64,000 bases of DNA from Spirochaetota bacterium (GTDB lineage Bacteria > Spirochaetota > UBA4802 > UB4802): assembly GCA_040756435.1 (NCBI GenBank), contig JBFLZD010000011.1, forward strand, positions 7,971-71,970, in the 5' to 3' direction. Below are positions 1-63,235 of this stretch, in pieces. Both the position numbers and the translations under genes were made by a program. How positions within the stretch are numbered: position 1 is the stretch's first letter; the number at the start of each line of letters is the position of its first letter. A model generated the notes under the pieces. That model was not told where the DNA came from. It searched no databases and was given only the letters and a program-made list of their open reading frames with translations.

Positions 1-887
1 AGATTAAATACGACAAACTTTGTATTGCCACTGGTGCCACTCCTTCCGTGCCATCCATACCTGGCATCACGTCACAGGGTGTTTTCAGCGTTCGCACTAT
101 TGATGATGCAGATGCTATTATTAACCATATAAACAACGCATCTAACAAAAATGTTGTAGTGATTGGTGGTGGCCTTTTGGGACTGGAAACTGCATACAGT
201 TTGTGCAAGCGGGGATGCAGCGTAACAGTTATTGAATTTTTTGATAGGCTCCTGCCGCGCCAGCTTGATGGTGATGGAGCAACCATTGTAAAAAAGCTTC
301 TTGAGCAAAAGGGATTACAGTTTGTATTAGGTGATTCGGTTACGGAAATTATGGGCGATAGTTCCGCACAAATAGTCATCTGCAAATCAGGGAAAAAACT
401 TACCGCAAGCACTGTGATATTCTCAATGGGAATTAAACCAGAGACTACCCTGGCAAAGAATGCAGGGATTTTGGTAAACCGTGGAATAGTTATTGATAAT
501 TATCTGCAAACTTCCGAACCGGATATTTTTGCTGCGGGAGATCCAACTGAATACAATGGAATATGTTATGGAATATGGCCTGCCGCACGCGAACAGGGGA
601 AGCTTGCAGGATTAAATATGGCAGGAGTTAAACAGGAATACAAGGGTACATTGCATTCAGTATTGTTAAAAATAACAGGCATTGACCTTTACTCGGCAGG
701 TGATTTTACTAAAGAAGACACTCAATCCATAGTTCATAAAGCCGACAGCATATACGTAAAGTTTTTATATAATAATACTGAACCTGTGGCAGCAATTGTC
801 ATTGGTGACATGAATATTATAAAACTTGCCCGCAACGTTATGGAAAAAAAAGCTGAGATTGGTGAACTAATTGGGAAGTTTACATGA
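1..887 (+). CDS. FAD-dependent pyridine nucleotide-disulfide oxidoreductase, C-terminal part (5' end lies outside window)
   Basis: Frame 3 is open from nt 3. The translation YDKLCIATGATPSVPSIPGI followed by the second dinucleotide-binding motif VVVIGGGLLGLETAYSL is typical of NADH oxidase/nitrite-reductase-type flavoproteins. Stop at 887. Confidence 0.75.
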   Translation, partial: IKYDKLCIATGATPSVPSIPGITSQGVFSVRTIDDADAIINHINNASNKNVVVIGGGLLGLETAYSLCKRGCSVTVIEFFDRLLPRQLDGDGATIVKKLLEQKGLQFVLGDSVTEIMGDSSAQIVICKSGKKLTASTVIFSMGIKPETTLAKNAGILVNRGIVIDNYLQTSEPDIFAAGDPTEYNGICYGIWPAAREQGKLAGLNMAGVKQEYKGTLHSVLLKITGIDLYSAGDFTKEDTQSIVHKADSIYVKFLYNNTEPVAAIVIGDMNIIKLARNVMEKKAEIGELIGKFT

Positions 888-910
888 TTTTTGGTGATAT
901 TTAGGGGGTG

Positions 911-1180: not shown

Positions 1181-2338
1181 CTACTTCTCTTTGAGATACT
1201 TTTCAATTCTGTTTAAGCCTTCTTGAATATTTTCCAACGATGTTGCATACGAAAATCGTAAAAAACCCTGGCCGGCGCTACCAAAATCAATACCAGGAGT
1301 TACTCCAACTTTAACTTTCTCTATTATATTGAATGCTTCTGTATATGAATCACTACAGAAAGCACGTGCATCTGCAAACACATAGAATGCGCCTGTTGGC
1401 TCAACATGGATTGTAAATCCCATTGATTGTAATCGCTGAATCATATATTTACGCCTGATGTTGTATGTATTGCGCATATGTTCAACATCCTGCTTTGCGT
1501 GTCGTAATGCGGCAATACCAGCCCACTGAATAAAGTTATTTGCCGAAATCATAAAATTTTGATGAATACGCTGCATTACGTTTGAAAATTCTTTTGGGAA
1601 AATGCAATAGCCTAATCGCCAACCTGTCATTGCATAGAGTTTGGAAAAGCCATTTATAACAAATGCCTTATCAGTAAATTCAAGTATGGAATGCGCTCTA
1701 TCTTTATAGACAAGGCCATGATAAATTTCATCTGAAATGATAAATTGTTTATCAAACTGAGCTATTGTCTGCAGTGCGTCTTTACTCATGACAATGCCTG
1801 TTGGATTACAGGGTGAATTTAACATAATAGCTTTAGTTTTGGGGGTTATTTTTTTCTTTATGTCGTCAGGTCTATACTGAAAACCTTCTTCGGGATAGGT
1901 TATTATTTCATTTACAATTCCTCCTGCTGCAATGATAAAATTTTGATAACACGGATAGCGAGGATTTGATACAATAACATCTTCACCGGGATTAAGTATA
2001 GCAAGCATGGCAAAAAGAAGCGCAGGTGAAGTCCCTGTAGTAACCAGTATCTGATCAGGTGATAGTGACACATTATATTCATCGTAATAATATTCACAGA
2101 TTGCTTCACGCAATTCCAGTAAACCCAACGCGTGGGTATATTTTATTTTTTGTTTTTTCAATGCTTCTATGGCAGCTTCTTCAATAATTTTGGGTGTCAT
2201 GAAATCAGGCTCCCCAACTTCTAAGTGAATCACATGCTCACCTTTGCGTTCCAGCTCTTCGGCCTTTGCCATAACATCCATAACAATAAATGATGTAAAT
2301 TCATGTGCACGTTGTGATAGCATAGTGCGATAGTTCAT
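1181..2338 (-). CDS. PLP-dependent aminotransferase class I/II (aspartate/aromatic aminotransferase-like)
   Basis: 385 aa. Motifs SNPRYPCY, NSPCNPTG and the lysine region FSKLYAMTGWRLGY. ATG at 2338. Confidence 0.85.
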   Translation of the reverse strand: MNYRTMLSQRAHEFTSFIVMDVMAKAEELERKGEHVIHLEVGEPDFMTPKIIEEAAIEALKKQKIKYTHALGLLELREAICEYYYDEYNVSLSPDQILVTTGTSPALLFAMLAILNPGEDVIVSNPRYPCYQNFIIAAGGIVNEIITYPEEGFQYRPDDIKKKITPKTKAIMLNSPCNPTGIVMSKDALQTIAQFDKQFIISDEIYHGLVYKDRAHSILEFTDKAFVINGFSKLYAMTGWRLGYCIFPKEFSNVMQRIHQNFMISANNFIQWAGIAALRHAKQDVEHMRNTYNIRRKYMIQRLQSMGFTIHVEPTGAFYVFADARAFCSDSYTEAFNIIEKVKVGVTPGIDFGSAGQGFLRFSYATSLENIQEGLNRIEKYLKEK

Positions 2339-2600
2339 AATAATATACTCTCACTATTACAAAATTTTATGTAGAGTGTACACATATACTACAACGATAT
2401 TGCTTCCCCACAAGCAATTTGTTAATTACAGCTTCCTATTACAAGTTAACCAGCAAATCACTATCATGACAAGCCTAATTTACAGTAACTATCGCAAAAA
2501 AATAATAGCAACTATTGACAAAATTTCACTTTCACTTTATTTTAATCATTGATTCAATAAACAGTAACTATCCTGCATACTATAATAAGGGGTGAAGCCT

Positions 2601-12215: not shown

Positions 12216-13430
12216 TTATATTGCAAGAGGTGCCCTTCCACAGCATTTTTTAAATTTTTTACCAGAACCACACGGGCAAGTGTCATTACGCTGCAACTGG
12301 TTAAATTTTCCTGATTGTACTGATTGCTGTAATTTACTTACCCTTCTTACCAATTCCTTTTCATAGTGCTGGTAATGCTCAAAAAGCATCTTCCATGCTT
12401 CACACAATTTGCTTGTACCTCTTTGATTTATAGTAGAAGTAAATCTATACCTGGTGCAATCTCCCATACAAAAATTATTAATGCTGCACATACTGCATTC
12501 GGTTGTGGTTTCACGTTTAAGCAGTGCAAATGTATTGCGTTTTTCATTATTCAAAATTTCCTGTAAGCGATAGTTCATAATATTGCCTAATTGCCACTCT
12601 GGATACACAAAAAAATCACAGGGGTAACAATCGCCATTGTGCTCCACAACGATATATGAATTGCATTCACCAAGCCAGCAACATGACGTTTTTGCACCAT
12701 AAGAATACATAAGAAGATCCTGAAATAACCTGATGGAAACATAGGGAAAACCATCCTGATACCATGCATCAAAAAGCTCACAGTAAAAATTCCCCAGATC
12801 CTTTCCACTGATACTGTATGGCATACTATTTCCCTGTTCATCGTGTTCAAAACAGGGAATAAACTGTAGATAGGCAAAGTTATTGTTTCGGAAGAAGTCA
12901 TAGATTTCACGTGCTTGTGCAACATTTGCATTGGTTACTAATGCAAGGATATTGTACTGCACGGCATATTCATTCATAAGAGCTATCGCATCCATAACTT
13001 TTCCAAAGGTACCATGCCCTGCATAATCTCTTCTATAGGTATCATGAATTACCTCTGGTCCATCTAAGCTTATGCCAACCAGAAAATTGTTACGTGATAA
13101 AAATTCACACCACTGCTCATTGAGAAGAATTCCATTTGTTTGAAGTGAATTTTCTATGATTTGAAAATTTTTCTTTAAACGGTTTTGAACAGTAACTATC
13201 TCCCTAAAAAAATCAAGACCGGCTAACGTTGGCTCACCACCCTGCCAACACAATGAAATATACGTTGAACCAGTATCAATCGCTGCTTTTATTAATGTCT
13301 CAACTACATCAAACGGCATTATTTGAAGACGCCCCGGGTATACATCAACTACCCGTTTGTAAAAACAGTAATTGCATGCTAAATTACAATGATATGAAAC
13401 CGGTTTTACTAAGATTGAAAGACTTTCCAT
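12216..13430 (-). CDS. Radical SAM / SPASM-domain enzyme (anSME-like) with a C-terminal SEC-C metal-binding motif
   Basis: CNLACNYCFY is a CxxxCxxC radical-SAM cluster. GGEPTL is a SAM motif. The C-terminal half carries a SPASM-type Cys cluster (CCWLGECNSY...DCYPCDFF...CSMCSINNFCMGDC). The tail CPCGSGKKFKKCCG is a SEC-C motif. Confidence 0.8.
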   Translation of the reverse strand: MESLSILVKPVSYHCNLACNYCFYKRVVDVYPGRLQIMPFDVVETLIKAAIDTGSTYISLCWQGGEPTLAGLDFFREIVTVQNRLKKNFQIIENSLQTNGILLNEQWCEFLSRNNFLVGISLDGPEVIHDTYRRDYAGHGTFGKVMDAIALMNEYAVQYNILALVTNANVAQAREIYDFFRNNNFAYLQFIPCFEHDEQGNSMPYSISGKDLGNFYCELFDAWYQDGFPYVSIRLFQDLLMYSYGAKTSCCWLGECNSYIVVEHNGDCYPCDFFVYPEWQLGNIMNYRLQEILNNEKRNTFALLKRETTTECSMCSINNFCMGDCTRYRFTSTINQRGTSKLCEAWKMLFEHYQHYEKELVRRVSKLQQSVQSGKFNQLQRNDTCPCGSGKKFKKCCGRAPLAI

Positions 13431-13836: not shown

Positions 13837-14298
13837 ATGAAAACTTTAAGTGATCATGCCGGAAATTATGAACTGACTAAACCTGAATGTGACTATATAG
13901 TAAAAAGTTTATTGCAGGTTGCCAACCCTGAACTTATAAAAATAATTACTCACAAAGATACAATTATTGGTTTTCTTTTTGGCTTTCATGATTTATCAGG
14001 TGCATTACAAAAAGCAAATGGGAAGCTAACCCCTTTATCTATTTATAGAATTATACGCGAATACAAAAAAACCAACTGGATACTGGTTAACGGGATGGGT
14101 ATACTTCCAGAATTTCAGGGATTGGGAGCCAATGCGGTATTATATGCAGAACTGGAAAAAACCATACGGCAATTTTCTCAGTTTAAACACTTAGAAATGG
14201 TGCAGATACAGGAAACTACAAGTAAAATGCTTAGTAATGTTAAAACATTAAATGGAAGGACATTCAAAACTCATCGGATGTATCAGTTAGCAATATAA
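13837..14298 (+). CDS. Hypothetical protein, possibly GNAT-like acetyltransferase fold
   Basis: 153 aa. NGMGILPEFQGLGANAVLYAELEK resembles GNAT motif A. No clear RBS; the start is uncertain. Confidence 0.4.
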   Translation: MKTLSDHAGNYELTKPECDYIVKSLLQVANPELIKIITHKDTIIGFLFGFHDLSGALQKANGKLTPLSIYRIIREYKKTNWILVNGMGILPEFQGLGANAVLYAELEKTIRQFSQFKHLEMVQIQETTSKMLSNVKTLNGRTFKTHRMYQLAI

Positions 14299-14457
14299 CC
14301 TGGTAATAAAATGAACATTTCACACTATATGAATATCAATTACTAACACAAAACCTATTTTGTAATTCATCAGATTGTATTTTATTTGACAATCCATTAT
14401 CGGTTGAAAATATTGCTTCAACACTAATATATACTATATCAGGTAATGGAGATCGGC

Positions 14458-15945: not shown

Positions 15946-16017
15946 CATAATATCCAAAGGATAAGGATATTCCATTGTCCTTATCCTTTGCCAATAACAA
16001 TTAAAAGAGGTGGTAGT

Positions 16018-16602
16018 ATGGCAAAAACATTTTATGAAGTAGTACTGGAAGGTCATTATAACTTTGTCTATGGGATGCTTGAGGGATATAAATTAGCTGC
16101 AGGGAAAAATTTTACTTACTATTTAAGTCAACAGGTTAATGTAAAAGCTACAACGCTTTCTGAGGTACTTAAAGAATTTCTTACCCTTAAAAGTAAGTTA
16201 CAATATGTTATTATTGAAGCTAATTCATGGAAAAAATTTGAAGCAGCTGTTAAAAAACAGCCTGAAAATTCACTCATTAATAAAAAATATATTAAGTCAG
16301 TTAAAAAGATTGAAAGTGCTTCATTTGAATTTAACTTTGAAGCCTATGCCAGAAAATATGGTGATGAAATAAAGAAAATACTTAAGTCATTACCTAAATC
16401 AATTAAGCTTGTTGACTATGCACCAAAAGAAGAAGTTCATAAAGATGCAAAAGGAACTGAACTGTATGCACCTGACCATGAATATTCATTCAAAGGTAAA
16501 GGTAAATTAGTGGGTGACATTGAAACAACTATTTCATTCAACAAGAAATTTGACGAGCACCCCTTAATAGATGTATCTACTATCAGTTTACAATTGAAAT
16601 AA
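16018..16602 (+). CDS. Hypothetical protein
   Basis: RBS agaggtgg 6 nt before the ATG at 16018. Lys-rich; no motif recognised. Confidence 0.45.
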   Translation: MAKTFYEVVLEGHYNFVYGMLEGYKLAAGKNFTYYLSQQVNVKATTLSEVLKEFLTLKSKLQYVIIEANSWKKFEAAVKKQPENSLINKKYIKSVKKIESASFEFNFEAYARKYGDEIKKILKSLPKSIKLVDYAPKEEVHKDAKGTELYAPDHEYSFKGKGKLVGDIETTISFNKKFDEHPLIDVSTISLQLK

Positions 16603-16765
16603 GAAAAATATTAATTTCACGGCTGTTTCAGGCTGCTGGGAAGTGAACATTATTACACATGTTGTTCATGGATTTTCATTCAGGAATGAATAGTATACTC
16701 CGATACTAATTACGTGTATCATCATATAGATTACATTTTTTTAATGAGATAGAAAAATAAGAACC

Positions 16766-17722: not shown

Positions 17723-17739
17723 ATGTTTTTAATTTACCA

Positions 17740-41347: not shown

Positions 41348-41349
41348 AA

Positions 41350-43264: not shown

Positions 43265-43280
43265 TTTTACAATTTTATCT

Positions 43281-43307
43281 TGACAGTATAAAAATGTAAA
43301 TATATTC
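43281..43307 (+). promoter_or_regulatory. Sigma-70-like promoter (TTGACA ... TATATT), possibly giving a leaderless or very short-leader transcript for the AAA ATPase gene
   Basis: TTGACA at 43281-43286 and TATATT at 43302-43307. The ATG is at 43315 and no SD is visible. Confidence 0.3.
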
Positions 43308-43314
43308 TTAATGT

Positions 43315-44517: not shown

Positions 44518-44540
44518 CATAAACCGCTCATACAACAAAG

Positions 44541-45608: not shown

Positions 45609-45619
45609 AGTTGTACCTT

Positions 45620-46117: not shown

Positions 46118-46125
46118 GTACTCTC

Positions 46126-46953: not shown

Positions 46954-46959
46954 GGGATA

Positions 46960-48417: not shown

Positions 48418-48534
48418 GCAATACCATTATTTTTATATAAATTTCACATCAAAACGGGGCTCATTTAAATGCTTTTAATCACTAAGACATTTTTAAAAGC
48501 CCCGTTATTTTGCCAGTAACTATCACTATCTCAA

Positions 48535-50145
48535 TTAAAAGTCTTTAAAATCATTGAGTGGTATTTTGTCCTCAGGCTTTATAAGCTCAACATCCTTATC
48601 ACCTTCTTTGGGTTTGGCCTTCATCTTATCTATTGCTTCATGAACCTTATGAGCCTTTGAAGTGAGGTCACTTGACTTCTTTTCATCAGCACTCTTTACA
48701 ATTATATTCTTGATTGCTTTTTCTCCCATCACCACTGAATTTAATTCCATTACCGCTTCACGCTGACTTTCTACCTGGCTTAACATCTCTTCGCTGCTGG
48801 AAGCTGTTTCCTCAGATGATGCAGCCAATTGCTGTACCACACTGTTTACCTGTGAAATTGCCTTGGTTACTTGATTTGAGCCCTTTGCCTGTTCCTTGGA
48901 TGCCCTGGTAATCTCATCAAGTAAAACATTTACCTTTTCAGCCCGTGATACTACATCATTAAAACTGGTTACCACTATATCAGTTTTGCTTGCCCCACTT
49001 TCAATATCCTGATTGATCATATCTATTAAATCCGATGTTTCTCTGGCCGAATCTGCACTTTTTTGTGCAAGTGACTTTACCTGCTCGGCAACCACGGCAA
49101 AACCACGGCCCACATCACCCGCACGAGCGGCCTCAACAGCAGCATTAAGTGCAAGTATATTGGTTTGAAATGCTATATCATCTATTGCTTTGTTTATTTT
49201 TATAATCTTCTTTGAGCTTTCACCAATGGTATTCATAATCTTTTGTAGCTCTGTAGAATGCTCCTGGGCACCTTTTGCTGTTTGCATGGTTTCTTTCATT
49301 AAAATTTCGGCCTCGTTTACATTTTTGGTATTGGATTCTATTATTGACTGTAACTCTTCCATACTGCTGGTTATCTCCTCTACCGAGCTTGCAAGCTCGC
49401 TTGCGCCACTGGACAATTCCTGGCTTGCTGATGCTACCTGGTTTGCTGCTTTTTCTAAATTATCAGATGATGTAGAAAGATTGTTGGAAACATTGTTTAT
49501 TGGTTTTACTATAATATTTGAAATAATAATACTTAAGGCAATAGAAAGTCCAACACCTATAATCATTAGTATTATTATTACAGAGCTATAAAACTTAATA
49601 TCCTCTTTTAATGTTTCCCTTTCAGATTTTACTTTTTCTTCCACCTTTTTCACTATACCATCAACTAAGCTTAATATTTCTGATAAATGTAATTGAACTT
49701 CCGAAGCATAATATTCGATTGCTGATTTTCTATCGCCCTTTTTCAAAAAAGCTTCAATTTTTTCAACATCCTTGTGCAATAAGGTATGGGGTTTTTCTAA
49801 TTGATTAAGGTCTTCTTTTATTTCTGGAATTATATTTTCCAATCTACGTCTATTTTCACCGTAATACCATTTTCCAAGACCACATTGTGTTGGATCTTTT
49901 TCCACTTTTATTTCTATAATATTTTCGTTACGCTGAAATTCTCCTACTTTATTACGAAAAAGCAAATGATCAATTTTCTTTTGCAACAATTCTTTCGAAT
50001 CCTGAATCAATTCAATATTATGATTCATTTCATTTACCAGACTAGAAGAATTGTTCAAGTTAATAACTATCAATATTACAAATAACATCGTGACGGATAT
50101 GAAACTTATTATTAATTTAACTCGCAAGTTTATATTTCGTAACAT
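48535..50145 (-). CDS. Methyl-accepting chemotaxis protein
   Basis: Canonical tip [40 protein letters not shown]. Two TM helices flank a sensor region that contains a C-x2-G-x-W motif ([10 protein letters not shown]). ATG at 50145 with RBS ggagga; the ORF track uses TTG 50157. Confidence 0.85.
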
Positions 50146-50181
50146 AGAATCCTCCAATAATAAATTTATAAATTATATTAT

Positions 50182-50661
50182 TTATACACTCTCTACCTTC
50201 TCAGCAATCTCTACAACCTCTTCGGTGGCCAATATATTATCTAGATTCAATATCATAACCATTGAATCCTGTAATTGTATAATGCCCTGCAAATATTTAC
50301 TTTTAAACTTGAACCCCACCTCAGGGGTTTTTTCAATTTTATCCTCAGGTATTTCTACCACATCCTGAACTGCATCAACAACAAGCCCCACATGATACAC
50401 GTCCTTAGCGGTAACAATATCCACTATAATAAATATTGTACGCTCGGTATACTCCTTTGCTGGCAGGCCAAATTTTAAACGCATATCTATTATGGGTATT
50501 ATTCTGCCCCGCAAATTAATAACACCTTTTAAAAATTCTGAAGCTTCATGCAACCCTGTTATTGGCACATAGCTAATAACTTCCTGCACTTTGGCAATAG
50601 GTATTGCATAGCGTTCGGCTTCTAACCTGAATATTAAATATTTATTGGTTCCACCCTCCAT
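50182..50661 (-). CDS. cheW: Chemotaxis coupling protein CheW
   Basis: A single CheW domain (YLIFRLEAERYAIPIAKVQEV...). The ATG at 50661 has a perfect RBS aaggaggtg; the ORF track starts at 50691. Confidence 0.85.
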   Translation of the reverse strand: MEGGTNKYLIFRLEAERYAIPIAKVQEVISYVPITGLHEASEFLKGVINLRGRIIPIIDMRLKFGLPAKEYTERTIFIIVDIVTAKDVYHVGLVVDAVQDVVEIPEDKIEKTPEVGFKFKSKYLQGIIQLQDSMVMILNLDNILATEEVVEIAEKVESV

Positions 50662-50677
50662 GTGCACCTCCTTTTGC

Positions 50678-51046
50678 TTATTGTGATACATACATCTGTA
50701 CTACTTTAATAAACTTTTCTGCCTCAAAGGGTTTTACTATCCATCCGGTTGCACCATACTCTTTTGCTTTCACTATTTTTTCTTTGTCGGTCTCAGTAGT
50801 GAGCATTATGATAGGTGTAGTGGCATCAAACGCCCGTACTTCTTTTACTAAAGTTATGCCATCCATTTTTGGCATATTGACATCAAATATACAAAGGGCA
50901 ATATTACCTTTATTATTTTTTATTACCTCCAGCCCTTCCTGCCCGTCTTTTGCTCTCAATATATCCTCATAACCATACATCTTTAATGCCTGGGTCACTA
51001 TATCCAGTATCACATCCGAATCATCTACCAGTACTATTTTTTTCAT
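50678..51046 (-). CDS. cheY: Chemotaxis response regulator CheY
   Basis: KIVLVDDSDVIL...FDVNMPKMDG...GWIVKPF is a single REC domain. ATG at 51046 with RBS gggaggt. Confidence 0.85.
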   Translation of the reverse strand: MKKIVLVDDSDVILDIVTQALKMYGYEDILRAKDGQEGLEVIKNNKGNIALCIFDVNMPKMDGITLVKEVRAFDATTPIIMLTTETDKEKIVKAKEYGATGWIVKPFEAEKFIKVVQMYVSQ

Positions 51047-51067
51047 AAAATGACCTCCCAAAAAATA

Positions 51068-53260
51068 TTATTTCACCGCTTCAATAAATCCCTGTAAATC
51101 CACCACAAATCCAATGCTTCCATCACCAAAGATTGTTCCACCTGAAAAATATTGATAATCGTTGAGCATAGTCCCCAAACTTTTTACCACTATCTCCTGC
51201 TTCCCAATTATTGAATCAACCACCACACAGTATTTAAACTGATCAAACATAAATATGAGCGATAGTAATCGGTTATCCTGCCTTGGTGTATATACTTCTT
51301 TAAAGATATCATGGGCAAAAATAACCGGTATATGCATATCCCTGTGGTATAGTATTGCTTCGTTTGAATTTTCCTGCTTTTGAAGACTACCCGCATCAAA
51401 CACCAGAATTTCTTCCACCGAATTGAAGGGAAATACATATCTGTTCCCACCTACCACTGTAACAAATCCTTCTATAATTGCCAGCGTCAATGGAAGTTTA
51501 ATGACAAATTTTGTAAATTTTCCTGGTTCTGAATGAATTTCTACCCTGCCATGGATTTGTTCTAAACCTTTTTTGACTACATCAAGACCAACACCCCTCC
51601 CCGACACAGCAGTAACATTTGTGCTGGTTGAAAATCCCGGTAAAAACATAAAATTATATATATCCTTATCAGTTAGCTTTCCCACATCCTCTTTTTTTAT
51701 CAGTTGCATTGCTATTGCTTTATCAAGTATCTTTTTGGTATCTATTCCACGCCCATCATCCATAATTATAATCTCTATGCCACTCCCCTTATGCTCGGCT
51801 GATAATGTAATTCTACCCACTTTATCCTTCCCCACAGCATCACGTTCTGCAGGACTTTCAATGCCATGATCAATGGCATTGCGTATGATGTGCATCAATG
51901 GATCATATATTGTTTCTATCACATTGCGATCAAGTTCCGTTTCTTCACCGTGAACTTCAATAAACACTGTTTTTTGTAATTCCTGAGCCGTATTGCGTGC
52001 AACAACACGCAGTTTATTAAACACTTCCTCAATAGGAACCATTCCCATAGATAGCACAAGGTCCTTAATTGCTGATGTAATCATCTCAGCCTGGCTTAAT
52101 GTGCGCTCGGAAATATTTATGGCGCCGCGGTTTCTTTCAATTTCCTGCTTTAACATTGATTGATTTATAACAAGCTCACCAACATAATCAATTAAACTGT
52201 TTAACTTCTCATTTGATACTTTCACAAATCCAATCTTTTTAATCTTGCTCTTTAGTTTTTGCTGCTTCTGCAATGCAGCAAGCAAATCATCCTGTTCCAC
52301 AAGTCTTTCTTCGGTAACTATCTGTCCAAACTTTTTATCTGTTTCTTTTTGTTTTTCAAGGATTGAATTAAGTTGCAGCTGCGACAGCTTTCCCTCTTCC
52401 TGTAATATTTCACCAATCTTTTTATACTGATATTCCTGTAATATTTTCTTTAAAAGAGCAATAAACGGAAATACTTTAAGCGAAATGAATGACTTTTTAA
52501 TTTCACCAGCTTTAAACTCATAGCTTTGCATTATATCTAGGATATTACGTAACAACTCCATGCCATAAAAAATGACATCCACCAGTTCACGGGATAGAAG
52601 CATTTTGCCATCACGGATAGCAGCAAATATATCTTCAATTGCATGGCTAATATCTTCAATGTTTTTAATTCCCAAAAATGATGATGAGCCTTTAATAGTA
52701 TGGAAATTTCTAAATACTGTATTAATAAGTTCTTGATTACTGGAATCATGTTCAAGTTCAAGCAATACAAATTGCGCACTATCTAAGTGCTCTGTTGCTT
52801 CATGATAAAATTGTTGTAAAAGCTTCTGGTCATCCACAAGATGTGAAAAATCTTCCATTGAATAGAATGAAGCTTTTTCTACTTGTTGCAGTGTGTCTTT
52901 ATCTTCTTCCCCATCTTCTGCATTGGTTTGTGTATCTTTTTGTTCTTCTACAATTTTATCTAACTTAGAAACATTGCGTTTTATTTGTTTCAACAATTTC
53001 TTTTTTTCTTCTTCCCCGGCATCATTATATTTATCTATTGCATCCACTATTTTTTCCAATACCTGAATGCATTGCACCTGTATTAATGGTGTGTGGGCTA
53101 AGCTTTTAATTATATCAGGAAGAGTGTGTATAACTTCATAGAGTACATCATTACTATATTGATGCACTATACTAATACATTCCTCCTTTATTTCAGCCAA
53201 TGCTAGGGCATCTCCTTCTTCAAAATTAGATATTAAACTTTTTATATGATCTTTTATCAT
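51068..53260 (-). CDS. cheA: Chemotaxis histidine kinase CheA
   Basis: Hpt domain FRNFHTIKGSSSFLGIKNIEDISHAIEDIF, HATPase domain (GSGIEIIIMDDGRGID...GRGVGLDVV), and a C-terminal CheW-like domain. 730 aa. RBS gaggt. Confidence 0.9.
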   Translation of the reverse strand: MIKDHIKSLISNFEEGDALALAEIKEECISIVHQYSNDVLYEVIHTLPDIIKSLAHTPLIQVQCIQVLEKIVDAIDKYNDAGEEEKKKLLKQIKRNVSKLDKIVEEQKDTQTNAEDGEEDKDTLQQVEKASFYSMEDFSHLVDDQKLLQQFYHEATEHLDSAQFVLLELEHDSSNQELINTVFRNFHTIKGSSSFLGIKNIEDISHAIEDIFAAIRDGKMLLSRELVDVIFYGMELLRNILDIMQSYEFKAGEIKKSFISLKVFPFIALLKKILQEYQYKKIGEILQEEGKLSQLQLNSILEKQKETDKKFGQIVTEERLVEQDDLLAALQKQQKLKSKIKKIGFVKVSNEKLNSLIDYVGELVINQSMLKQEIERNRGAINISERTLSQAEMITSAIKDLVLSMGMVPIEEVFNKLRVVARNTAQELQKTVFIEVHGEETELDRNVIETIYDPLMHIIRNAIDHGIESPAERDAVGKDKVGRITLSAEHKGSGIEIIIMDDGRGIDTKKILDKAIAMQLIKKEDVGKLTDKDIYNFMFLPGFSTSTNVTAVSGRGVGLDVVKKGLEQIHGRVEIHSEPGKFTKFVIKLPLTLAIIEGFVTVVGGNRYVFPFNSVEEILVFDAGSLQKQENSNEAILYHRDMHIPVIFAHDIFKEVYTPRQDNRLLSLIFMFDQFKYCVVVDSIIGKQEIVVKSLGTMLNDYQYFSGGTIFGDGSIGFVVDLQGFIEAVK

Positions 53261-53603
53261 AATGGCAAACCTCAGTAGAGTTTTATATTATTTATTTCCA
53301 TTACGTTAACTCAATAAAAGTATTAAATCAAGTAAAAAAAATTTAGTAAATTTTAATTGCAAATTCAAGTATAAGTGCAACATAAAATAAAAAAGCATTT
53401 TTCTTTGGTTTTTTTTAATTTTTAAGCCTAAATAAAAGAAAGTGGATAGTGGTATAAAAACAATTTTTGACTTACTAAAATTATCATTTTGTGTGGAACA
53501 CTATATACCTTACTGTAAACCATCAATGTAATTAAATTCTGTATTCAATTGATTATTTCCTTTCGTTATAGTATATTTATTACCACATAATAAATATTAA
53601 TTA

Positions 53604-53626
53604 AGATTTGACAAATAAGTGCCGAT
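53604..53626 (+). promoter_or_regulatory. Candidate sigma-28-type promoter for flgM (TTAAG, 15 nt, GCCGATAG); it overlaps a TTGACA hexamer
   Basis: GCCGATAG at 53619-53626 is one mismatch from the GCCGATAA consensus. TTAA lies 15 nt upstream. It is about 30 nt before the flgM ATG. It also overlaps a copy of the iterated oligomer (cgatagttac). Confidence 0.3.
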
Positions 53627-53657
53627 AGTTACTATAGATTAAAAGAAGGTGATTACC

Positions 53658-53951
53658 ATGGTTATTGATAAAATAGGGAACATTAAGAATATTGTTGAAC
53701 CTAAAAACACCAAATCGGTTGGTAAAACCAGATCTACCGGGAAATCTGATTCGGTTGAAATTTCAAGCGAAGCCAAAAAGGCTGCTGAGCAATCTAAAAT
53801 TGCCCAGGTTATAAAGCAGACACCCGATATACGAGCTGAAAGAGTAAGGGAAATTAAAGAACAGATAGCTAATGGTACGTACGATTTCAATGATGACCGT
53901 ATAATAGATAAAGTTGCAGAAAAAATTGCTATGCAGCTTTTACGCAAATAA
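53658..53951 (+). CDS. flgM: Anti-sigma-28 factor FlgM
   Basis: 97 aa. Ser/Lys-rich N-terminus and the C-terminus DIRAERVREIKEQIANGTYDFNDDRIIDKVAEKI, the FlgM sigma-28-binding helices. RBS aagaaggtg. Confidence 0.7.
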   Translation: MVIDKIGNIKNIVEPKNTKSVGKTRSTGKSDSVEISSEAKKAAEQSKIAQVIKQTPDIRAERVREIKEQIANGTYDFNDDRIIDKVAEKIAMQLLRK

Positions 53952-53978
53952 ATAAACCCTTTTTAAAGGTTATTATAG

Positions 53979-55205
53979 ATGGCCGGCATAATTGACAAAA
54001 AGGCGGAATCAGGATTCCGCTTTTTTATGTCTAAAGCCTATGGACAAACCATGGAAGGCCTGTGGCCGGATCTGTATATCCCAACTGCGGTATATGCACA
54101 ACCTGATAGTGTAGCACTCCTTCCATCTATAATTAAGCTTTTTGGCTCCCGTATATTATTTATTACCAGTTCAATTGATTTTAACCAGTATAACCACCTT
54201 TTTATGCCCATTGCACGAAGCCTGCAAAACAATAACATACCGTTTATAGTATATGATGAAATTCCTGAAAACAATACTGATTATATTGATACTGCGGTGT
54301 ATTTTGCCCGTAAAACCCATTGCGACCTGGTTATAGGATTTGGCGGCATCAATTCAATCAATGCGGCAAAAGCAGTTGCGCTGTTAACTCCTAACTATTT
54401 CTTTGCACATGAACTTTTTAACTATCCTTTTTTACATGAACCAATACCATTTATCAGTATTCCCGTACATCCACTGTTTGGTTTTGATATAACTCCCTGC
54501 ACAATACTGACTGATATCCATGATGGTATCCATAAAACCTTTTTCCATAATTACATCTTTCCCAAAGCTGTTATCCTTGACCCCGGTATGTCATTTGGCA
54601 TTGATGAAGTAACATTAGCCAATTACAGCATGGCAACATTAGCTATTGCCACTGAATCGGTTATTTCAAGAAATATCAATAATATTACCAATACACTTTC
54701 TTTAAGAACTATAGACCTCATATTTAAAAATTTACCTGCTGCATTGCGCGAAAGTGACAATGAAACTGCGCGACTTAATATCATGATGTCATCACTTATG
54801 GCGGGCATTGCTTTCAGCAGTGCACAGCTTTCTGTGACATTAGCATTATCACTGGCACTTTCTTCATTGACACCAATTGATATTGCATCATTAATGGCTG
54901 TTATGCTACCACATATTATGGAATATAATTTAACTTCATCTCCTGGTAAATACGTACAGATGTCCAAAGTCATGGATGAGGATGTACGTGATATCACCGT
55001 TATTGAAGCTGCAATTAAAGCAGTGGAAGGTGTACGAAAATTAGCACTTGATGTTGATATTCCACAACGTCTATCGCAATTTGATATTAACAAAGGCATT
55101 TTTTCCAAAGTGGCCGAAATTACATTGACCTACCCATTCATTCACAATGCACCCCGTGCACTCAACCGCGACGAAGTTGAAACCATCCTTATTGCAGCCT
55201 ATTAG
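53979..55205 (+). CDS. Iron-containing alcohol dehydrogenase (Fe-ADH) fold protein with degenerate cofactor and metal sites
   Basis: The architecture follows Fe-ADH throughout: ...DLVIGFGGINSINAAKAVA, PFISIPVHPLFGFDITPCTILTD, PKAVILDPGM, and LPHIMEYN. The GGGSxxD motif and the four metal-ligand positions (D, H, H, H, as in FucO) read S, L, L, I. Its stop is 4 nt before larB. Confidence 0.6.
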   Translation: MAGIIDKKAESGFRFFMSKAYGQTMEGLWPDLYIPTAVYAQPDSVALLPSIIKLFGSRILFITSSIDFNQYNHLFMPIARSLQNNNIPFIVYDEIPENNTDYIDTAVYFARKTHCDLVIGFGGINSINAAKAVALLTPNYFFAHELFNYPFLHEPIPFISIPVHPLFGFDITPCTILTDIHDGIHKTFFHNYIFPKAVILDPGMSFGIDEVTLANYSMATLAIATESVISRNINNITNTLSLRTIDLIFKNLPAALRESDNETARLNIMMSSLMAGIAFSSAQLSVTLALSLALSSLTPIDIASLMAVMLPHIMEYNLTSSPGKYVQMSKVMDEDVRDITVIEAAIKAVEGVRKLALDVDIPQRLSQFDINKGIFSKVAEITLTYPFIHNAPRALNRDEVETILIAAY

Positions 55206-55208
55206 CCT

Positions 55209-55958
55209 ATGAGTCAGTCTTCACTTAACAATTTACTGCAACGGTTTAAAAATGGGCTTGTTTCTGATGAGGATTTTTTACAACAACTATCGCACATTAC
55301 AATAGAACAGTTAGGCCACACTACACTGGATCATCACCGTCACACACGGTTAGGTTTTCCTGAAGTCATTTTTTGCCAAAATAAAACTCCCCAACAGGTT
55401 GCCGACATTGCCAAGGCGTTAGCCAAACGTAAGACAAGTTTTTTAGGTACACGTGCCACCAGAGAGCACTACAACAAAGTTAAAAAGTATATTAAAAAGG
55501 CTCACTATAATGAAGCTGGTAAAATCATTTCTTACCGTGCACAAACGCTTCATCATAAACCACACAAACTTTTAATTATAACTGCTGGCACATCCGATAT
55601 TCCGGTTGCTGAAGAAGCAAAGGAAACCGCGCACATTATGGGGCTTACTGTTGAAACAATCTATGATATTGGGGTTGCAGGAATACATCGTGTATTTCAT
55701 AACTGGGGAAATATTTATGATGCCACAGTCATTATTGTTATAGCCGGTATGGAAGGTGCACTACCAAGCGTTATTGGGGGATTAGTGCCCTGCCCTGTTA
55801 TTGCAGTGCCAACTTCAGTTGGGTATGGTGCTTCATTTGGTGGTGTGGCAGCGCTACTTGGGATGCTCAACTCATGCGCACCGGGGATTAGCGTTGTTAA
55901 CATTGACAACGGCTTTGGCGCTGTATACTGTGCCTACCGTATTATTCGCAATTTGTAG
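55209..55958 (+). CDS. larB: Nickel-pincer cofactor biosynthesis protein LarB (PurE-like AIR-carboxylase family)
   Basis: 249 aa. The PurE-like core LLIITAGTSDIPVAEEAKETAHIMG...AGMEGALPSVIGGLVPCPVIAVPTSVGYG and an N-terminal extension typical of LarB. Confidence 0.8.
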   Translation: MSQSSLNNLLQRFKNGLVSDEDFLQQLSHITIEQLGHTTLDHHRHTRLGFPEVIFCQNKTPQQVADIAKALAKRKTSFLGTRATREHYNKVKKYIKKAHYNEAGKIISYRAQTLHHKPHKLLIITAGTSDIPVAEEAKETAHIMGLTVETIYDIGVAGIHRVFHNWGNIYDATVIIVIAGMEGALPSVIGGLVPCPVIAVPTSVGYGASFGGVAALLGMLNSCAPGISVVNIDNGFGAVYCAYRIIRNL

Positions 55959-55967: not shown

Positions 55968-57131
55968 ATGAAAATACTCTACTGTGATGTGCAATTAGGC
56001 GCTTCAGGTGATATGCTTGTTGGCGCATTTCTTGATATGGGGCTTCCTGTTAATGTCCTTACTACCCAGCTCCAATCATTATCAGTAAAAGGTTTTGCGA
56101 TAGTTCCTGAAAAAGTAAAGCGCTATGGTATACAGGGCACTCAGGCTGGTATTACCGCACGCATTGACACCACTAACCGTAATCTTGCGGCCATAAACGA
56201 TATTATTGCACACACGACGTGCTCTGACACCGTAAAAAAAAATGCAATGAAGGTTTTTGATACATTAGCCGCTGCTGAAGGCGCAGTACACGGCATTCCA
56301 AAGGAAGAGGTTCACTTTCATGAGGTTGGAGCCATTGATAGCATTGTAGATATACTTTCTTTTTGCATTGGCATTGAATATTTTGCAATTGATACACTGT
56401 ATTACAGCCCATTTGCGCTGGGCACAGGTACTATCAAAACGCACCATGGTACTTTGCCGTTACCTGCCCCGGCAACCGTTAAGCTTACCGTTGGCAAAAA
56501 GGTTATGTTTACCGGACTGGAAGGGGAACTTACTACACCAACGGCTGCTGCCATCCTAGTAACGCTTGGCACACAACTTTCACATTTTGGAGGTACTGTA
56601 GCAAATGTGGGTATTGGGTTTGGCACCCGTGATTATGGTTTTCCCAGTTATACCAGAGCTTTGCTTATTGATGATAACTCTTTTGAATATGAAGTTCTGA
56701 GTGTACTGGAATGCACCATTGACGACATGAATCCTGAAATATATCCCCATGTGGCTGAGTTACTGTTTGAGGCGGGTGCACGGGACGTGTATATGCAGCA
56801 GGTTATAGCAAAAAAAGGGCGTCCCGGGGTGGTTGTTTCGGTACTCTGCCCTCTAGATGTAGTTAATCAATGTACACAGATTCTTTTACGGCAAACAACC
56901 ACCCTGGGGGTCAGAGCATATACCGTCAACCGCTATTCGCTACCACGGGAGTTTGCAACCGTTACCCTGTACGGAGAAGAGATACATATAAAGCAAAGTT
57001 ACCGTTATCAGGAACTATCGCCAAAACCTGAATTTGAGGATTGTAAAAAAGTAGCAGTAAAAACAGGAAAACCTTTATATGTAATAATGGAAGAGGCTCT
57101 AAAGGAATACTACAAACAGAAGAAATTATAG
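55968..57131 (+). CDS. larC: Nickel insertion protein LarC (DUF111)
   Basis: MKILYCDVQLGASGDMLVGAFLDMG is the LarC/DUF111 N-terminal signature. 387 aa. Confidence 0.8.
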   Translation: MKILYCDVQLGASGDMLVGAFLDMGLPVNVLTTQLQSLSVKGFAIVPEKVKRYGIQGTQAGITARIDTTNRNLAAINDIIAHTTCSDTVKKNAMKVFDTLAAAEGAVHGIPKEEVHFHEVGAIDSIVDILSFCIGIEYFAIDTLYYSPFALGTGTIKTHHGTLPLPAPATVKLTVGKKVMFTGLEGELTTPTAAAILVTLGTQLSHFGGTVANVGIGFGTRDYGFPSYTRALLIDDNSFEYEVLSVLECTIDDMNPEIYPHVAELLFEAGARDVYMQQVIAKKGRPGVVVSVLCPLDVVNQCTQILLRQTTTLGVRAYTVNRYSLPREFATVTLYGEEIHIKQSYRYQELSPKPEFEDCKKVAVKTGKPLYVIMEEALKEYYKQKKL

Positions 57132-57590: not shown

Positions 57591-57784
57591 ACTGAAATCC
57601 TTATTTCAAATTTACTATATTATCACAATAGTAGTAATAGTAATGCTATTTTTCAAGTTAAAATTTTTATTTTTTGGCGATAGTTACTGTTATAAAGACT
57701 TTATTTTCAGCAATAATTCCTTAAAAAATTTTTATAATGAATATAGTTACACCGGGGGTGTCCCAAAACAATTCGTGGAGTTCT

Positions 57785-57920
57785 CAATGACGCGGGTGCA
57801 AAGTCATTGCGAGCGTAGCGAAGCAATCTCAATGCCGCAGAAGACAAGATTGCTTCGTCACTTCGTTCCTCGCAATGACAGTATGGCAAAAGTTATTGCA
57901 GAAGATGTCTTTTGAGACAA
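57785..57920. repeat. Mosaic nested-hairpin repeat, copy 6 (short)
   Basis: gtcattgcgag-cgtag-cgaagcaatctc ... agattgcttcg-tcacttcgttc-ctcgcaatgac forms a nested inverted repeat with 11-bp outer arms. It ends gatgtcttttgagacaactc. Confidence 0.7.
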
Positions 57921-61635: not shown

Positions 61636-63235
61636 TCAACATCATATATGGTGGAAGCACGGGGTACTATATCACATCTATCCCCGCAGTTTCTATGATG
61701 CAAATGATGATGGCATAGGTGATTTGCGCGGTATCATTGAAAAATTTGATTATCTTGTTAACCTGGGTATTGATGCTATATGGCTTTCGCCTATTTATGC
61801 TTCACCAATGTATGACTGTGGTTATGATATAAGTGATTATTACAACATTGATCCATGTTTTGGTACATTGGATGATTTTAAAACATTATTGGCGATAGCT
61901 CATAGTAATAACATAAAGATTATAATGGACATGGTGTTAAACCATACATCACACCTGCATCCATGGTTTATTGAATCATCCTCATCACGCGATAATCCCA
62001 AACGCAATTGGTATGTGTGGCAAGACCATGTAAATAGGAAAGCACCAAACAACTGGAAATCAGCATATTTGTCAAGTGCATGGGAATGGCATGAGCCCAC
62101 ACAACAATTTTATTTACATTCATTTCTTAAAGAACAACCCGATCTTAACTGGCATAATCCTGAAGTTAAACAGGCAATGTTTGATGTGTTACGGTACTGG
62201 CTTGATATGGGAGTTGACGGATTTAGATTGGATGTGATTAATTACTGCTATAAAGATAAGCGTCTGCGAAACAACCCTTTCTCGTTTAACCCGTTCAATG
62301 AACAGATAGAAAAATATAATAGAAATAGGCCTGAAAATTATACACTGGTACAAGAAATACGGCAACTGGTTGATTTATACCATGATAGAATGGTCGTTGG
62401 TGAAGTATTTTGCTATCCACCAGGTAATCCGGAATTATCCGCAAGCTATCTTTGTAATGGCAAAGGTTTGAATTTAGCTTTTGATTTTTCACTACTATAT
62501 CAGCCTTTTGAGGCACACAAAATTTACAAGTCTATCAAACACTGGTTCAACGTCATACCTGAAAATTGCTGGCCTTGTAATGTATTATCAAATCATGATC
62601 AACCACGATATGCTGATAAACATAACAGCGACAACATTGACGCAGTTCAACGTTTGCTATTATTAATGCTTCTGACATTACGCGGAACTCCATTCATTTA
62701 CTATGGCGAAGAAATTGGCATGAAAAATTGCTCTATTCCACTTCGCCATATTAAGGATCCTGCAGGGAAAAGGTTCTGGCCTATATACACGGGAAGAGAT
62801 TGTTCGCGTACTCCTATGCAGTGGTCAGATGAAGCTAATGCTGGTTTCAGCAAAAGTTGCAGCTGGCTTCCCATTGACAGTAACTATCGCACAATAAATG
62901 TAAAAAACCAAAGTAAAGACCGGTATTCCCTGCTATCTTTTTTTAAAGATTTAATACAATTGCGAAAAAAACATCCTGCACTTACTCATGGAACCTGGGA
63001 ACCTATTGTAAAAGGGAAAAATGGCATTTTAGCATATATACGCAAAATTGATCCTGAAACTTTATGCATTATACTAAACTTTAATGATAGCACCAGCTTT
63101 TTACATTACCCCTACGAAGCACAATGGAAAGTACTATATTCAACTCATCGAAGCAGATTTGAGCATTTTGCCGACCTACGTTTTCAGTGTTATCCTTATG
63201 AAGCAACTATTTTAAAGAAGATAGGAAACCTGTAA
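61568..63235 (+). CDS. GH13 alpha-amylase-family enzyme (alpha-glucosidase / trehalose-synthase-like)
   Basis: WWKHGVLYHIYPRSF, DLRGIIEKFDYLVNLGIDAIWLSPIY, GFRLDVINY, EVF and NHD are the conserved GH13 regions I-IV. The start is ambiguous (ATG at 61568, 61574 or 61613) and overlaps the end of the preceding gene. Confidence 0.8.
   Translation: MPMNSALMQLLSNSSMTLTQQHSQHHIWWKHGVLYHIYPRSFYDANDDGIGDLRGIIEKFDYLVNLGIDAIWLSPIYASPMYDCGYDISDYYNIDPCFGTLDDFKTLLAIAHSNNIKIIMDMVLNHTSHLHPWFIESSSSRDNPKRNWYVWQDHVNRKAPNNWKSAYLSSAWEWHEPTQQFYLHSFLKEQPDLNWHNPEVKQAMFDVLRYWLDMGVDGFRLDVINYCYKDKRLRNNPFSFNPFNEQIEKYNRNRPENYTLVQEIRQLVDLYHDRMVVGEVFCYPPGNPELSASYLCNGKGLNLAFDFSLLYQPFEAHKIYKSIKHWFNVIPENCWPCNVLSNHDQPRYADKHNSDNIDAVQRLLLLMLLTLRGTPFIYYGEEIGMKNCSIPLRHIKDPAGKRFWPIYTGRDCSRTPMQWSDEANAGFSKSCSWLPIDSNYRTINVKNQSKDRYSLLSFFKDLIQLRKKHPALTHGTWEPIVKGKNGILAYIRKIDPETLCIILNFNDSTSFLHYPYEAQWKVLYSTHRSRFEHFADLRFQCYPYEATILKKIGNL

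Follow-up and report, generated by a model that had tools for sequence, protein, structure and literature searches.

Occurrence and Form of the Motif

The window (the whole 64-kb stretch of DNA analysed here) comes from an uncultured, Leptospirales-related lineage of Spirochaetota. Its genes include those for an aminotransferase, argininosuccinate lyase, an MFS transporter, RNase R, leucyl aminopeptidase and a GH13 alpha-amylase; scanning it for Rfam families and tRNAs gave no matches. The nine-base word AACTATCGC, or its reverse complement GCGATAGTT, occurs exactly 19 times in this stretch, nine times on the plus and ten times on the minus strand:

355–363, minus strand: gcggAACTATCGCcca; antisense within a pyridine-nucleotide disulphide oxidoreductase gene (48–887, plus strand)
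2327–2335, minus strand: immediately behind the ATG of the aminotransferase gene (1181–2338, minus strand); encodes M-N-Y-R
2487–2495, plus strand: intergenic, in a divergent promoter region; complete extended form ttacagtAACTATCGCaaaaaaa
5237–5245, minus strand: argininosuccinate lyase gene, sense, T-T-I-A frame
12567–12575, minus strand: radical SAM/SPASM gene, sense, N-Y-R frame
17437–17445, plus strand: cagtAACTATCGCacaa; gene of unknown family, sense, V-T-I-A frame; kept in L002 and L003
19254–19262, minus strand: intergenic, in the 20-nt gap between two plus-strand genes; the ATG at 19266 follows 4 nt on; kept in L002, L003 and L005
23334–23342, minus strand: MFS transporter gene, sense, E-L-S frame; the L002 and L005 orthologues have the one-off variant AGCTATCGC
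25136–25144, plus strand: 6 nt 5' of the predicted start of an outer-membrane transport protein gene; kept in L002 and L004
27740–27748, minus strand: RNase R gene, antisense, A-I-V frame; kept in 5/5 genomes compared
29755–29763, plus strand: leucyl aminopeptidase gene, sense, Q-L-S frame; kept in 5/5 genomes
29852–29860, plus strand: cagtAACTATCGCacaa; same aminopeptidase gene, sense, V-T-I-A frame; found in L002 and L004, missing from L003 and L005
31406–31414, minus strand: doubtful ORF (31306–31704) made up partly of GC-rich repeats; probably intergenic
43023–43031, plus strand: tetrapyrrole methylase gene, sense, E-L-S frame
55285–55293, plus strand: AIR-carboxylase-domain gene, sense, Q-L-S frame
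56097–56105, minus strand: nickel-insertion (LarC-like) gene, antisense, A-I-V frame
57013–57021, plus strand: same nickel-insertion gene, sense, E-L-S frame
57677–57685, minus strand: complete extended form aacagtAACTATCGCcaaaaaa; short doubtful ORF or intergenic, adjoining a GC-rich repeat cluster
62882–62890, plus strand: cagtAACTATCGCacaa; GH13 alpha-amylase gene, sense, N-Y-R frame

Fifteen of the 19 copies are located in ORFs, and those at 2327 and 2487 form an inverted pair with 160 nt between them. The positions given in the original prediction all fell within ~12 nt of the true core starts. A true repeat family is present in the window as well.

The earlier count, at least 19 occurrences of the 9-mer where chance would give less than one, proved accurate. 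Dinucleotide-preserving shuffles of the window contained 0.20 copies on average (maximum 2), and an order-3 Markov model predicted 0.35. In an unbiased scan of 9-mers, AACTATCGC ranked first for over-representation, exceeding chance ~50-fold. Allowing up to one mismatch gave 50 matches (10.0 expected); the one-mismatch variants number 31, well above the minimum of eight noticed before. The 12-mer AGTAACTATCGC was indeed present in eight copies, with 0 expected.

The signal extends beyond the core. The extended motif, ttt.CAGT-AACTATCGC-MMAA, comprises ~17 bases including the flanks, which are rich in T 5' of the core and in A 3' of it and belong to the signal; it is fullest in intergenic copies. 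The flanks are asymmetric, and the core, as had been noted, is neither palindromic (GCGATAGTT differs from AACTATCGC) nor biased toward one strand of the window. One-mismatch variants are enriched at the outer core positions only, the central CTATC being strict. The spacing of the cores ranges from 97 nt to 12.3 kb and appears irregular. Beyond about −10 and +13, the information content around the core is nil; flank similarity ends there, so the motif is not a longer dispersed repeat. A single dispersed repeat with longer flanking similarity, against which the original prediction had cautioned, was looked for and not found.

Origin at the DNA Level

Genic copies were distributed over the reading frames as 13, 18 and 22 in sense and 20, 12 and 0 in antisense. 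The empty antisense frame (0/32) is the one with an in-frame TAG; because this frame is closed, a sense-to-antisense ratio of 3:2 is predicted, and the observed 53:32 fits it. Codon choice at these sites was also unusual. Asn-Tyr-Arg was encoded as AAC-TAT-CGC in 13 of 18 instances (0.7 expected), AIV as GCG-ATA-GTT in 20 of 80 (1.0 expected) and, in the window alone, Leu-Ser as the rare codons CTA-TCG in 16 of 121 (0.9 expected). Because the motif uses all permitted frames, both orientations and intergenic DNA, and overrides codon usage, it is driven by DNA and not by protein, as had been proposed.

Two details of that proposal needed correction. The 17-mer cagtAACTATCGCacaa does occur in three genes, but their reading frames are not all different: two of the genes read V-T-I-A-Q in one and the same frame, and the GH13 copy alone differs, reading N-Y-R. 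Likewise, two of the four copies listed at or just before start codons are exact, whereas those at 53621 and 55961 are inexact, with one mismatch (AACTATCGG) and two mismatches (GTAACTATCCT), respectively. Intergenic enrichment was set aside: it looked 2.3-fold in the metagenome set described below, where we take it to be partly an ascertainment effect, and was non-significant in two samples that were not motif-selected, a point against the uptake reading discussed below.

Distribution among Relatives and in Metagenomes

Four sister species (L002–L005, with 85–88% RNase R identity; 79.7 kb) contained 25 copies, at 0.23–0.39/kb, a density like that of the window, and AACTATCGC was the top 9-mer in each of them. 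More distant relatives (L006–L008, ~50% protein identity) had zero copies and no alternative hyper-abundant word. The motif is clade-specific: like DUS/USS-type motifs it is common to close species, here L002–L005, its range stopping short of L006–L008.

Metagenomes yielded 42 loci of the same genome type, mostly independent (385 kb, GC 0.30–0.42), with 2–8 copies each. In lineage DNA totalling 394 kb, for the most part independent, 132 copies were counted versus 2.9 expected. The density is about one copy per 3.3 kb (~0.3/kb); by extrapolation, a whole genome would carry roughly 1,000 copies per 3–4 Mb.

The 85 viral contigs matching the same pattern (764 kb) were chance-level singletons with only five extra cores among them; in IMG/VR, no viral contig had more than two cores and no phage had repeated copies. 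In a sample with little accessory DNA, this is the one hint of the depletion in recently acquired DNA that goes with DUS/USS. A search for dialects in the sister loci, the distant relatives and the single-hit metagenome loci found no alternative hyper-abundant word, and the only variant to emerge was the one-off form (G)AGCTATCGC, which was moderately enriched. A literature search for the motif string returned PCR primers and similar matches only.

Conservation and Turnover of Sites

Compared with L002, 6 of 7 sites were kept (background 13%, p = 3e-5), and compared with L004, 4 of 4 (background 17%). The flanks of conserved sites diverge normally, and intergenic copies are invariant while the spacers around them diverge. 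There is turnover as well: in the five-genome comparison, about half of the sites are lineage-specific. Gains at orthologous positions occurred by point substitution, not insertion, and in the RNase R gene such a gain could be followed stepwise in single lineages, from AAC-TAT-AGA through CGA to CGC.

Strand Neutrality and Pairing

GC skew is negative throughout the window. Over 117 sites, the G-rich and C-rich strands carry the motif in a ratio of 61:56 (p = 0.71), so that it is neutral with respect to strand.

Thirteen pairs of copies lie within 200 nt of each other (7.65 expected, p = 0.037), and 11 of them are inverted, with both head-to-head and tail-to-tail arrangements. The arms of the inverted pairs are 20–170 nt apart, and a tight hairpin is possible only at L265 770/790; one conserved inverted pair flanks a separate bidirectional terminator without forming it. 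Inverted pairs are conserved as pairs between genomes.

A Candidate DNA Uptake Sequence

Uptake sequences (DUS/USS) have been reported for two families only, Neisseriaceae and Pasteurellaceae, and are described as abundant, shared by relatives, genome-wide, equally frequent on both strands, selective in their use of frames and often present as inverted intergenic repeats (bioRxiv 10.1101/2025.10.24.684340). They are nearly exact words of 9–12 nt that number hundreds to thousands in a genome, and their receptors are ComP or predicted ComN minor pilins. The motif might be a recognition sequence of this type, specific to a Leptospirales-related clade of Spirochaetota, a reading that we find plausible, if not quite probable. 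Of the recognition motif originally envisaged, the DNA-driven, non-mobile and clade-shared character stands, while the Chi-like option does not; the DUS-like option fits every statistical test run and is consistent but unproven.

From these patterns we infer uptake, a receptor and a molecular drive. A putative surface or periplasmic receptor of a transformation machinery would bind double-stranded DNA best when it contains ttt.CAGTAACTATCGCMMAA, the central CTATC presumably being the part on which it is least tolerant. DNA from the same clade would then be preferentially taken up and recombined into the chromosome. Such an uptake bias would act as a drive, converting near-matches into matches and shielding existing copies from being lost to mutation, as far as coding constraints or regulatory DNA permit. 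Its outcome would be about one copy per 3.3 kb, with the strands equal.

The DUS core of the Neisseriaceae is GCCGTCTGAA, plus dialects, and its receptor is the minor pilin ComP. Like this core, the motif is a short, nearly exact, asymmetric word with a density of the same order (~0.3/kb here), equal on both strands, genic as well as intergenic with stop-creating frames avoided, common to related species and missing in more distant ones, and inclined to the inverted arrangement in close pairs. It differs in that its sequence is unrelated, its host belongs to another phylum, no dialects were detected, and no ComP-like pilin or competence gene was found in ~460 lineage proteins. Moreover, its inverted copies, 20–170 nt apart, do not appear to make terminator stems, whereas those of Neisseriaceae and Pasteurellaceae usually do (bioRxiv 10.1101/2025.10.24.684340).

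The USS of the Pasteurellaceae has the core AAGTGCGGT and AT-rich flanks. Shared with it are the 9-nt core with weaker, A/T-rich extended flanks, core positions that range from strict to tolerant, the frame-dependent placement in proteins, where tolerated tripeptides are encoded, and an accumulation through point substitutions at orthologous sites, in keeping with molecular drive. Sequence and host are, however, unrelated, and the density is lower than in H. influenzae, where the USS occurs at about 0.8/kb.

Signatures of prepilins, PilB/PilT, DprA, ComF and ComEC were absent from the ~460 lineage proteins and from six-frame ORFs of 124 loci, in a crude screen whose sample (~0.5 Mb) represents an estimated one-sixth of a genome. 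The signature regular expressions, together with Pfam scans of proteins that are large or span the membrane several times, did find transporters, FtsK, FeoB and chemoreceptors. The sole helix-hairpin-helix match was rejected as ComEA, being RecR by its sequence features. A 10-helix membrane protein without a Pfam family is encoded at L259 3014–4411. A literature search on spirochaete competence or uptake sequences gave nothing relevant, and to our knowledge natural transformation has not been described for Leptospirales. ComEC-domain proteins are reported to be common in Spirochaetes generally (PMC6299819).

A bolder proposal, which we put forward still more tentatively, is that the motif represents a third, independently evolved uptake (self-recognition) sequence system, the first outside Proteobacteria. 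The clade would be naturally transformable and would select own-kind DNA via ttt.CAGTAACTATCGCMMAA, using a receptor presumably unrelated to ComP/ComN.

Alternative Explanations

The main rival to the uptake reading is a motif that acts in place, as HIP1 may do in cyanobacteria. An abundant, lineage-specific DNA-binding protein, involved in nucleoid or chromosome structuring or in some other genome-wide process, would bind the sites, and ordinary selection would keep each of them. We consider this unlikely, though far from negligible. Sites are kept above background both within and between genes, and their conservation would fit selection for an in-place chromosomal function equally well; Xu et al. 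applied this argument to HIP1 (PMC5861425). Inverted close pairs, conserved pairwise, would be expected of a protein binding two sites, and the lack of competence genes in the sample of ~460 lineage proteins points the same way. HIP1 (GCGATCGC) is likewise hyper-abundant, 15- to 300-fold (PMC5861425) compared with ~50-fold here, and in both cases sites are conserved within and between ORFs with no peptide, RNA or regulatory role evident. The two thus have hyper-abundance and conservation beyond background in common, but HIP1 is a palindromic octamer, whereas our motif is asymmetric and ~17 nt long.

This asymmetry, the length and the near-exactness of the motif argue against an in-place role, since the known sites of nucleoid-associated or chromosome-organising proteins are in most cases palindromes or degenerate sequences. 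Lineage-specific sites make up about half of those compared across the five genomes, and gains are stepwise; drive would be a better fit for this than fixed structural positions. The spacing in the window also looks irregular. Furthermore, we know of no candidate protein. The IHF consensus was dropped because key positions mismatch. The GTAAC in the 5' flank matches what we take to be the site of Borrelia EbfC, GTnAC, a likeness of five bases only.

A by-product of biased repair or modification, in which for example very-short-patch-type repair coupled to a methyltransferase would neutrally regenerate the word, seems improbable. There is a CpG within the motif, near-matches visibly turn into matches stepwise, and a precedent exists in E. 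coli, where the methyltransferase target CCWGG is over-represented through VSP repair. Against this, no depletion is seen in the deamination products (AACTATTGC, 14 vs 10.7 expected; AACTATCAC, 18 vs 4.8 expected), the asymmetric word has ~17 informative positions, far more than known methyltransferase or VSR specificities, and the T-rich 5' and A-rich 3' flanks also carry signal.

A regulatory or RNA-level signal (promoter element, transcription-factor site, RNA-binding or processing site) is highly improbable. Intergenic copies are often near gene starts, and a TAnAAT-like sequence follows some of them, but the majority of copies are intragenic, orientation relative to transcription shows no preference beyond the stop frame (53:32 vs 3:2), orientation toward downstream starts is inconsistent, and no Rfam family matches. 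A sigma-28 −10 box, considered for its resemblance to GCGATA, was dropped for want of a −35 signal and because the copies lie mainly within genes.

That the copies are remnants, ends or target sites left by a small mobile element (a MITE, a REP/RAYT element or the target of an IS) is hardly credible. Intergenic inverted pairs 40–90 nt apart and the presence of a true repeat family in the window might suggest it. However, the spacers of different pairs are unrelated, pairs are both head-to-head and tail-to-tail, at least two thirds of the copies sit inside conserved housekeeping genes in a frame-compatible manner, and orthologous gains arose by point mutation, not insertion. The element-length similarity, mostly extragenic location and defined termini of REP and MITE sequences are all missing. 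A mobile element is ruled out because similarity never exceeds ~24 nt, in agreement with the original prediction.

Finally, a polar chromosome signal (Chi for RecBCD/AddAB, or a KOPS-type sequence orienting FtsK) is scarcely worth entertaining and, provided that GC skew tracks replication in the lineage, is refuted: Chi and KOPS are, like the motif, over-represented short asymmetric oligonucleotides, read by DNA-processing machines, and an FtsK with a gamma domain is present in the lineage (L201), but they are strongly co-oriented with replication, only mildly over-represented and shorter (5–8 nt for Chi, 8 nt for KOPS), whereas the ~50-fold over-represented motif has no strand skew (9:10 in a window of uniformly negative GC skew, 61:56 overall), and such roles are excluded for this reason.

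Implications

In practice, AACTATCGC offers a sharp genomic marker by which to bin and track the clade in metagenomes. Were it no uptake signal, it would join HIP1 as a second motif that is hyper-abundant and conserved but of unknown function.

Sequence-specific uptake has a central place in the controversy over why bacteria transform, whether for a conservative 'sex' within the species or to obtain DNA as a source of food or novelty. Should the uptake reading be correct, an unrelated motif in uncultured spirochaetes would be a third case and would show that evolution arrives at this strategy repeatedly. Such a case would also predict natural competence in a phylum with difficult genetics, where the motif, added to donor DNA, would become a tool.

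An over-represented short word

The 9-mer AACTATCGC, counted with its reverse complement, has 19 copies in the 64 kb window (9 on the + strand, 10 on the − strand), vs 0.20 on average and never more than 2 in 100 dinucleotide-preserving shuffles of the window. When all k-mers were compared, without preselection, with the counts expected from an order-3 Markov model, it ranked first among 9-mers (0.35 expected). Matches with up to one mismatch numbered 50 (10 expected) and the 12-mer AGTAACTATCGC was found 8 times (0 expected), so that both the hyper-iteration of the core and the 12-mer count of the original prediction were reproduced.

Upon alignment of the window copies, similarity stopped within about 10 bases on each side of the core. 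A position matrix described the extended motif as T-rich at −10 to −7, then C-A-G-T, the core, and M-M-A-A at +9 to +12, where G is absent; outside it, the information was zero. The motif is therefore a short word and not a piece of a longer dispersed repeat. A sub-form, tattATGAACTATCGC, with ATG instead of AGT before the core, was seen three times (window 2327 and 12567; position 2653 of the metagenome locus L247), one copy lying at a predicted start codon and one inside a gene.

By gene content, the window is ordinary chromosomal DNA, including genes for FliD, CheA, chemoreceptors, RNase R, leucyl aminopeptidase, acetyl-CoA synthetase, argininosuccinate lyase and a GH13 amylase; scans of the window for tRNA genes and Rfam families returned zero matches. 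Fifteen of the 19 copies lie inside ORFs. The 11 sense copies use all three frames, specifying N-Y-R, (E/Q)-L-S or T-I-A, while the four antisense copies specify A-I-V or G-D-S. Some other features of the window are the following:

998-1113, 23779-23984, 31484-31728, 33780-33976, 35642-35908 and 57785-57899: GC-rich intergenic repeats
31306-31704 (−): 132-aa ORF without a Pfam family, its 5′ half composed of GC-rich repeats
43032-55284: 12.3 kb without an exact motif copy, yet with eight one-mismatch variants

The GC-rich repeats (48-54% GC vs 36% background) are strongly self-complementary, with units GTCATTGCGAG(C/G)...GAAGCAATC and TTCGACAAGCTCAG; the window contains 12 copies of GTCATTGCGAG and 6 of TTCGACAAGCTC, and two of the clusters have folding energies of −55 and −63 kcal/mol. 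Their appearance suggests a family of REP-like or palindromic elements that has no relation to the AACTATCGC motif. The 132-aa ORF is probably not a real gene, and the motif copy that it contains, at 31406, hence likely falls between genes. The longest gap between copies (43023 to 55285), which adjoins one of 11.6 kb (31406 to 43023), contains a chemotaxis cluster (genes for MCPs and CheA), encoded entirely on the − strand, and shows a stronger GC skew than the rest of the window.

Host lineage and genome-wide spread

A protein search with RNase R retrieved four metagenome-assembled genomes, annotated as Spirochaetota or "uncultured Leptospira", with 85-88% identity; beyond them, identity falls to about 50%, in relatives labelled Leptospirales or Spirochaetes. 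All four close relatives show synteny with the window (72-94% DNA identity), and in each of them the motif is the top over-represented 9-mer, at 0.23-0.39 copies per kb vs 0.30 in the window. The loci compared from the ~50% relatives held zero copies and no comparable hyper-abundant word of any sequence. Presence in closely related species, which the original prediction had proposed as a check, extends to all four sisters. Along window 14250-17742 (362-3850 in L003, the closest sister), DNA identity varies from 78% to 94% depending on the segment, which could reflect interspecies recombination within the clade or mere differences in gene constraint.

Searching public metagenome contigs with CAGTAACTATCGCMMA yielded at least 120 loci; among the matches listed, at least 44 carry two to eight cores. 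Lineage GC content (0.30-0.42) was shown by 42 of the 44 multi-core loci listed; these are mostly unrelated to each other and to the window and contribute 385 kb of further DNA. The same pattern retrieved 85 loci (764 kb) among 2.9 million viral contigs, with just five cores beyond the retrieving core of each locus. Over 394 kb of lineage DNA, for the most part independent, 132 exact copies were counted, far above the 2.9 expected. With a roughly 50-fold excess and one copy every 3.3 kb, the motif is distributed genome-wide.

A DNA-level, strand-neutral signal

In the enlarged set (with crude gene calls), 53 copies were sense, 32 antisense and 43 between gene calls. None of the 32 antisense copies used the frame that puts TAG in frame, and 53:32 corresponds to the 3:2 expected with that frame forbidden. 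This absence of preference relative to transcription argues against a role at the RNA level and renders a regulatory or RNA signal unlikely. The non-coding share in the metagenome set (33%) is an overestimate: the search pattern selects for the full extended form, and this form is more frequent in intergenic DNA. In two samples not selected by motif the share was 4/19 and 4/25 vs 13% non-coding DNA, neither being significant.

Asn-Tyr-Arg was written AAC-TAT-CGC in 13 of 18 tripeptides (0.7 expected), Ala-Ile-Val as GCG-ATA-GTT in 20 of 80 (1.0 expected), and Leu-Ser through the rare codons CTA-TCG in 16 of 121 pairs (0.9 expected; window alone, not motif-selected) and in 17/148 in the sister loci. 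The extended flanks were found in coding copies and were strongest in intergenic ones, where no other constraint acts on the sequence. The motif is a DNA-level signal that overrides codon usage and, as originally proposed, is not protein-driven, occurring in all permitted frames and both orientations.

GC skew is negative throughout the window, which therefore lies within one replichore, and the strand count there is 9:10; across all loci with clear skew, 61 copies are on the G-rich and 56 on the C-rich strand. By definition, Chi- and KOPS-type signals are strongly co-oriented with replication. The lack of polarity excludes signals of these types and leaves a polar role unlikely: the claimed absence of strand bias holds, the suggested Chi-like nature does not.

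Conservation, tolerance and pairing

In the two more distant sister species, all nine bases were kept at 6/7 window sites (L002; 13% of all 9-mers, p = 3e-5) and at 4/4 (L004; 17% of all 9-mers), with no above-average conservation in the 20 bases on either side. Intergenic motif pairs showed no change among three orthologous loci despite the divergence of their spacers. Across five genomes, about half of the sites were present in some lineages only, and there the relatives show near-matches one to three substitutions away. In the RNase R gene, for example, AAC-TAT-AGA (window, L003) becomes AAC-TAT-CGA (sister locus L005) and AAC-TAT-CGC (L002, L004), a synonymous series from a common to a rarer arginine codon. 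Such conservation and turnover is the expected product of a persistent bias towards the motif, by selection or drive.

One-mismatch variants exceeded expectation overall (185 vs 79), but the excess was confined to the outer core positions (position 1, T or G; position 2, G; position 8, T or A; position 9, A); substitutions within the central CTATC were at chance level. The CpG deamination products were not depleted (AACTATTGC, 14 vs 10.7; AACTATCAC, 18 vs 4.8), which argues against an origin by very-short-patch repair and makes a repair bias unlikely.

Motif pairs at most 200 nt apart numbered 13 vs 7.65 under a compartment-preserving null (p = 0.037). Eleven of the 13 were inverted, both head-to-head and tail-to-tail, mostly 40-90 nt apart and intergenic. 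Spacers of different pairs were unrelated, so the pairs are not miniature transposable elements; with similarity confined to ~10 bases around the core, a mobile element is unlikely, in agreement with the original prediction. Three arrangements were recorded at metagenome loci:

L265 766-802: two full extended motifs, inverted, 11 nt apart (CAGTAACTATCGCcaaaaatttaaGCGATAGTTACTG); the sole pair (770/790) tight enough for a hairpin, of a possible 13 bp
L209 10989-11087, L249 4729-4824, L248 191-289: conserved tail-to-tail pair between convergent genes, bracketing a separate bidirectional Rho-independent terminator (AAAAAGCGGGTT...AACCCGCTTTTTT), motifs outside the hairpin stem
L259 3014-4411 (−), orthologue L253 8516-9919 (+): gene immediately adjoining a conserved inverted pair; its 465-aa product is conserved, has ~10 predicted membrane helices and matches no Pfam family, even with the cut-off at E = 0.01

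Possible function

We tentatively regard a signal for DNA uptake or self-recognition as the best explanation, because the properties of the motif match those described for the uptake sequences of Neisseriaceae (DUS) and Pasteurellaceae (USS). Like these, it is short, nearly exact, asymmetric, over-represented, strand-neutral and clade-specific; it enters genes despite codon preference and avoids stop-creating frames; its sites are conserved and also gained by point mutation; and it combines strict and tolerant core positions, AT-rich flanks and close pairs tending to inversion. In those two families, inverted copies usually make up terminator stems; here they do not appear to. The DUS-like character originally suggested is matched statistically. 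No competence or pilin genes were found in the ~0.5 Mb of lineage DNA sampled. ComEC-domain proteins are reported to be common in Spirochaetes generally (PMC6299819).

The main alternative, which we consider less likely, is a function in place on the chromosome, as argued from site conservation for the cyanobacterial palindrome HIP1 (PMC5861425); the conservation of our sites is evidence of the same kind.

As of late 2025, Neisseriaceae and Pasteurellaceae were the only families with known uptake motifs (bioRxiv 10.1101/2025.10.24.684340). Literature searches for the motif string returned only primers and similar sequences, and those on uptake sequences returned no paper connecting them with spirochaetes. 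The phenomenon, a hyper-abundant lineage-specific genomic word, is of a known type, while the motif sequence and the phylum are new; if uptake were confirmed, the biological implication would be new as well.
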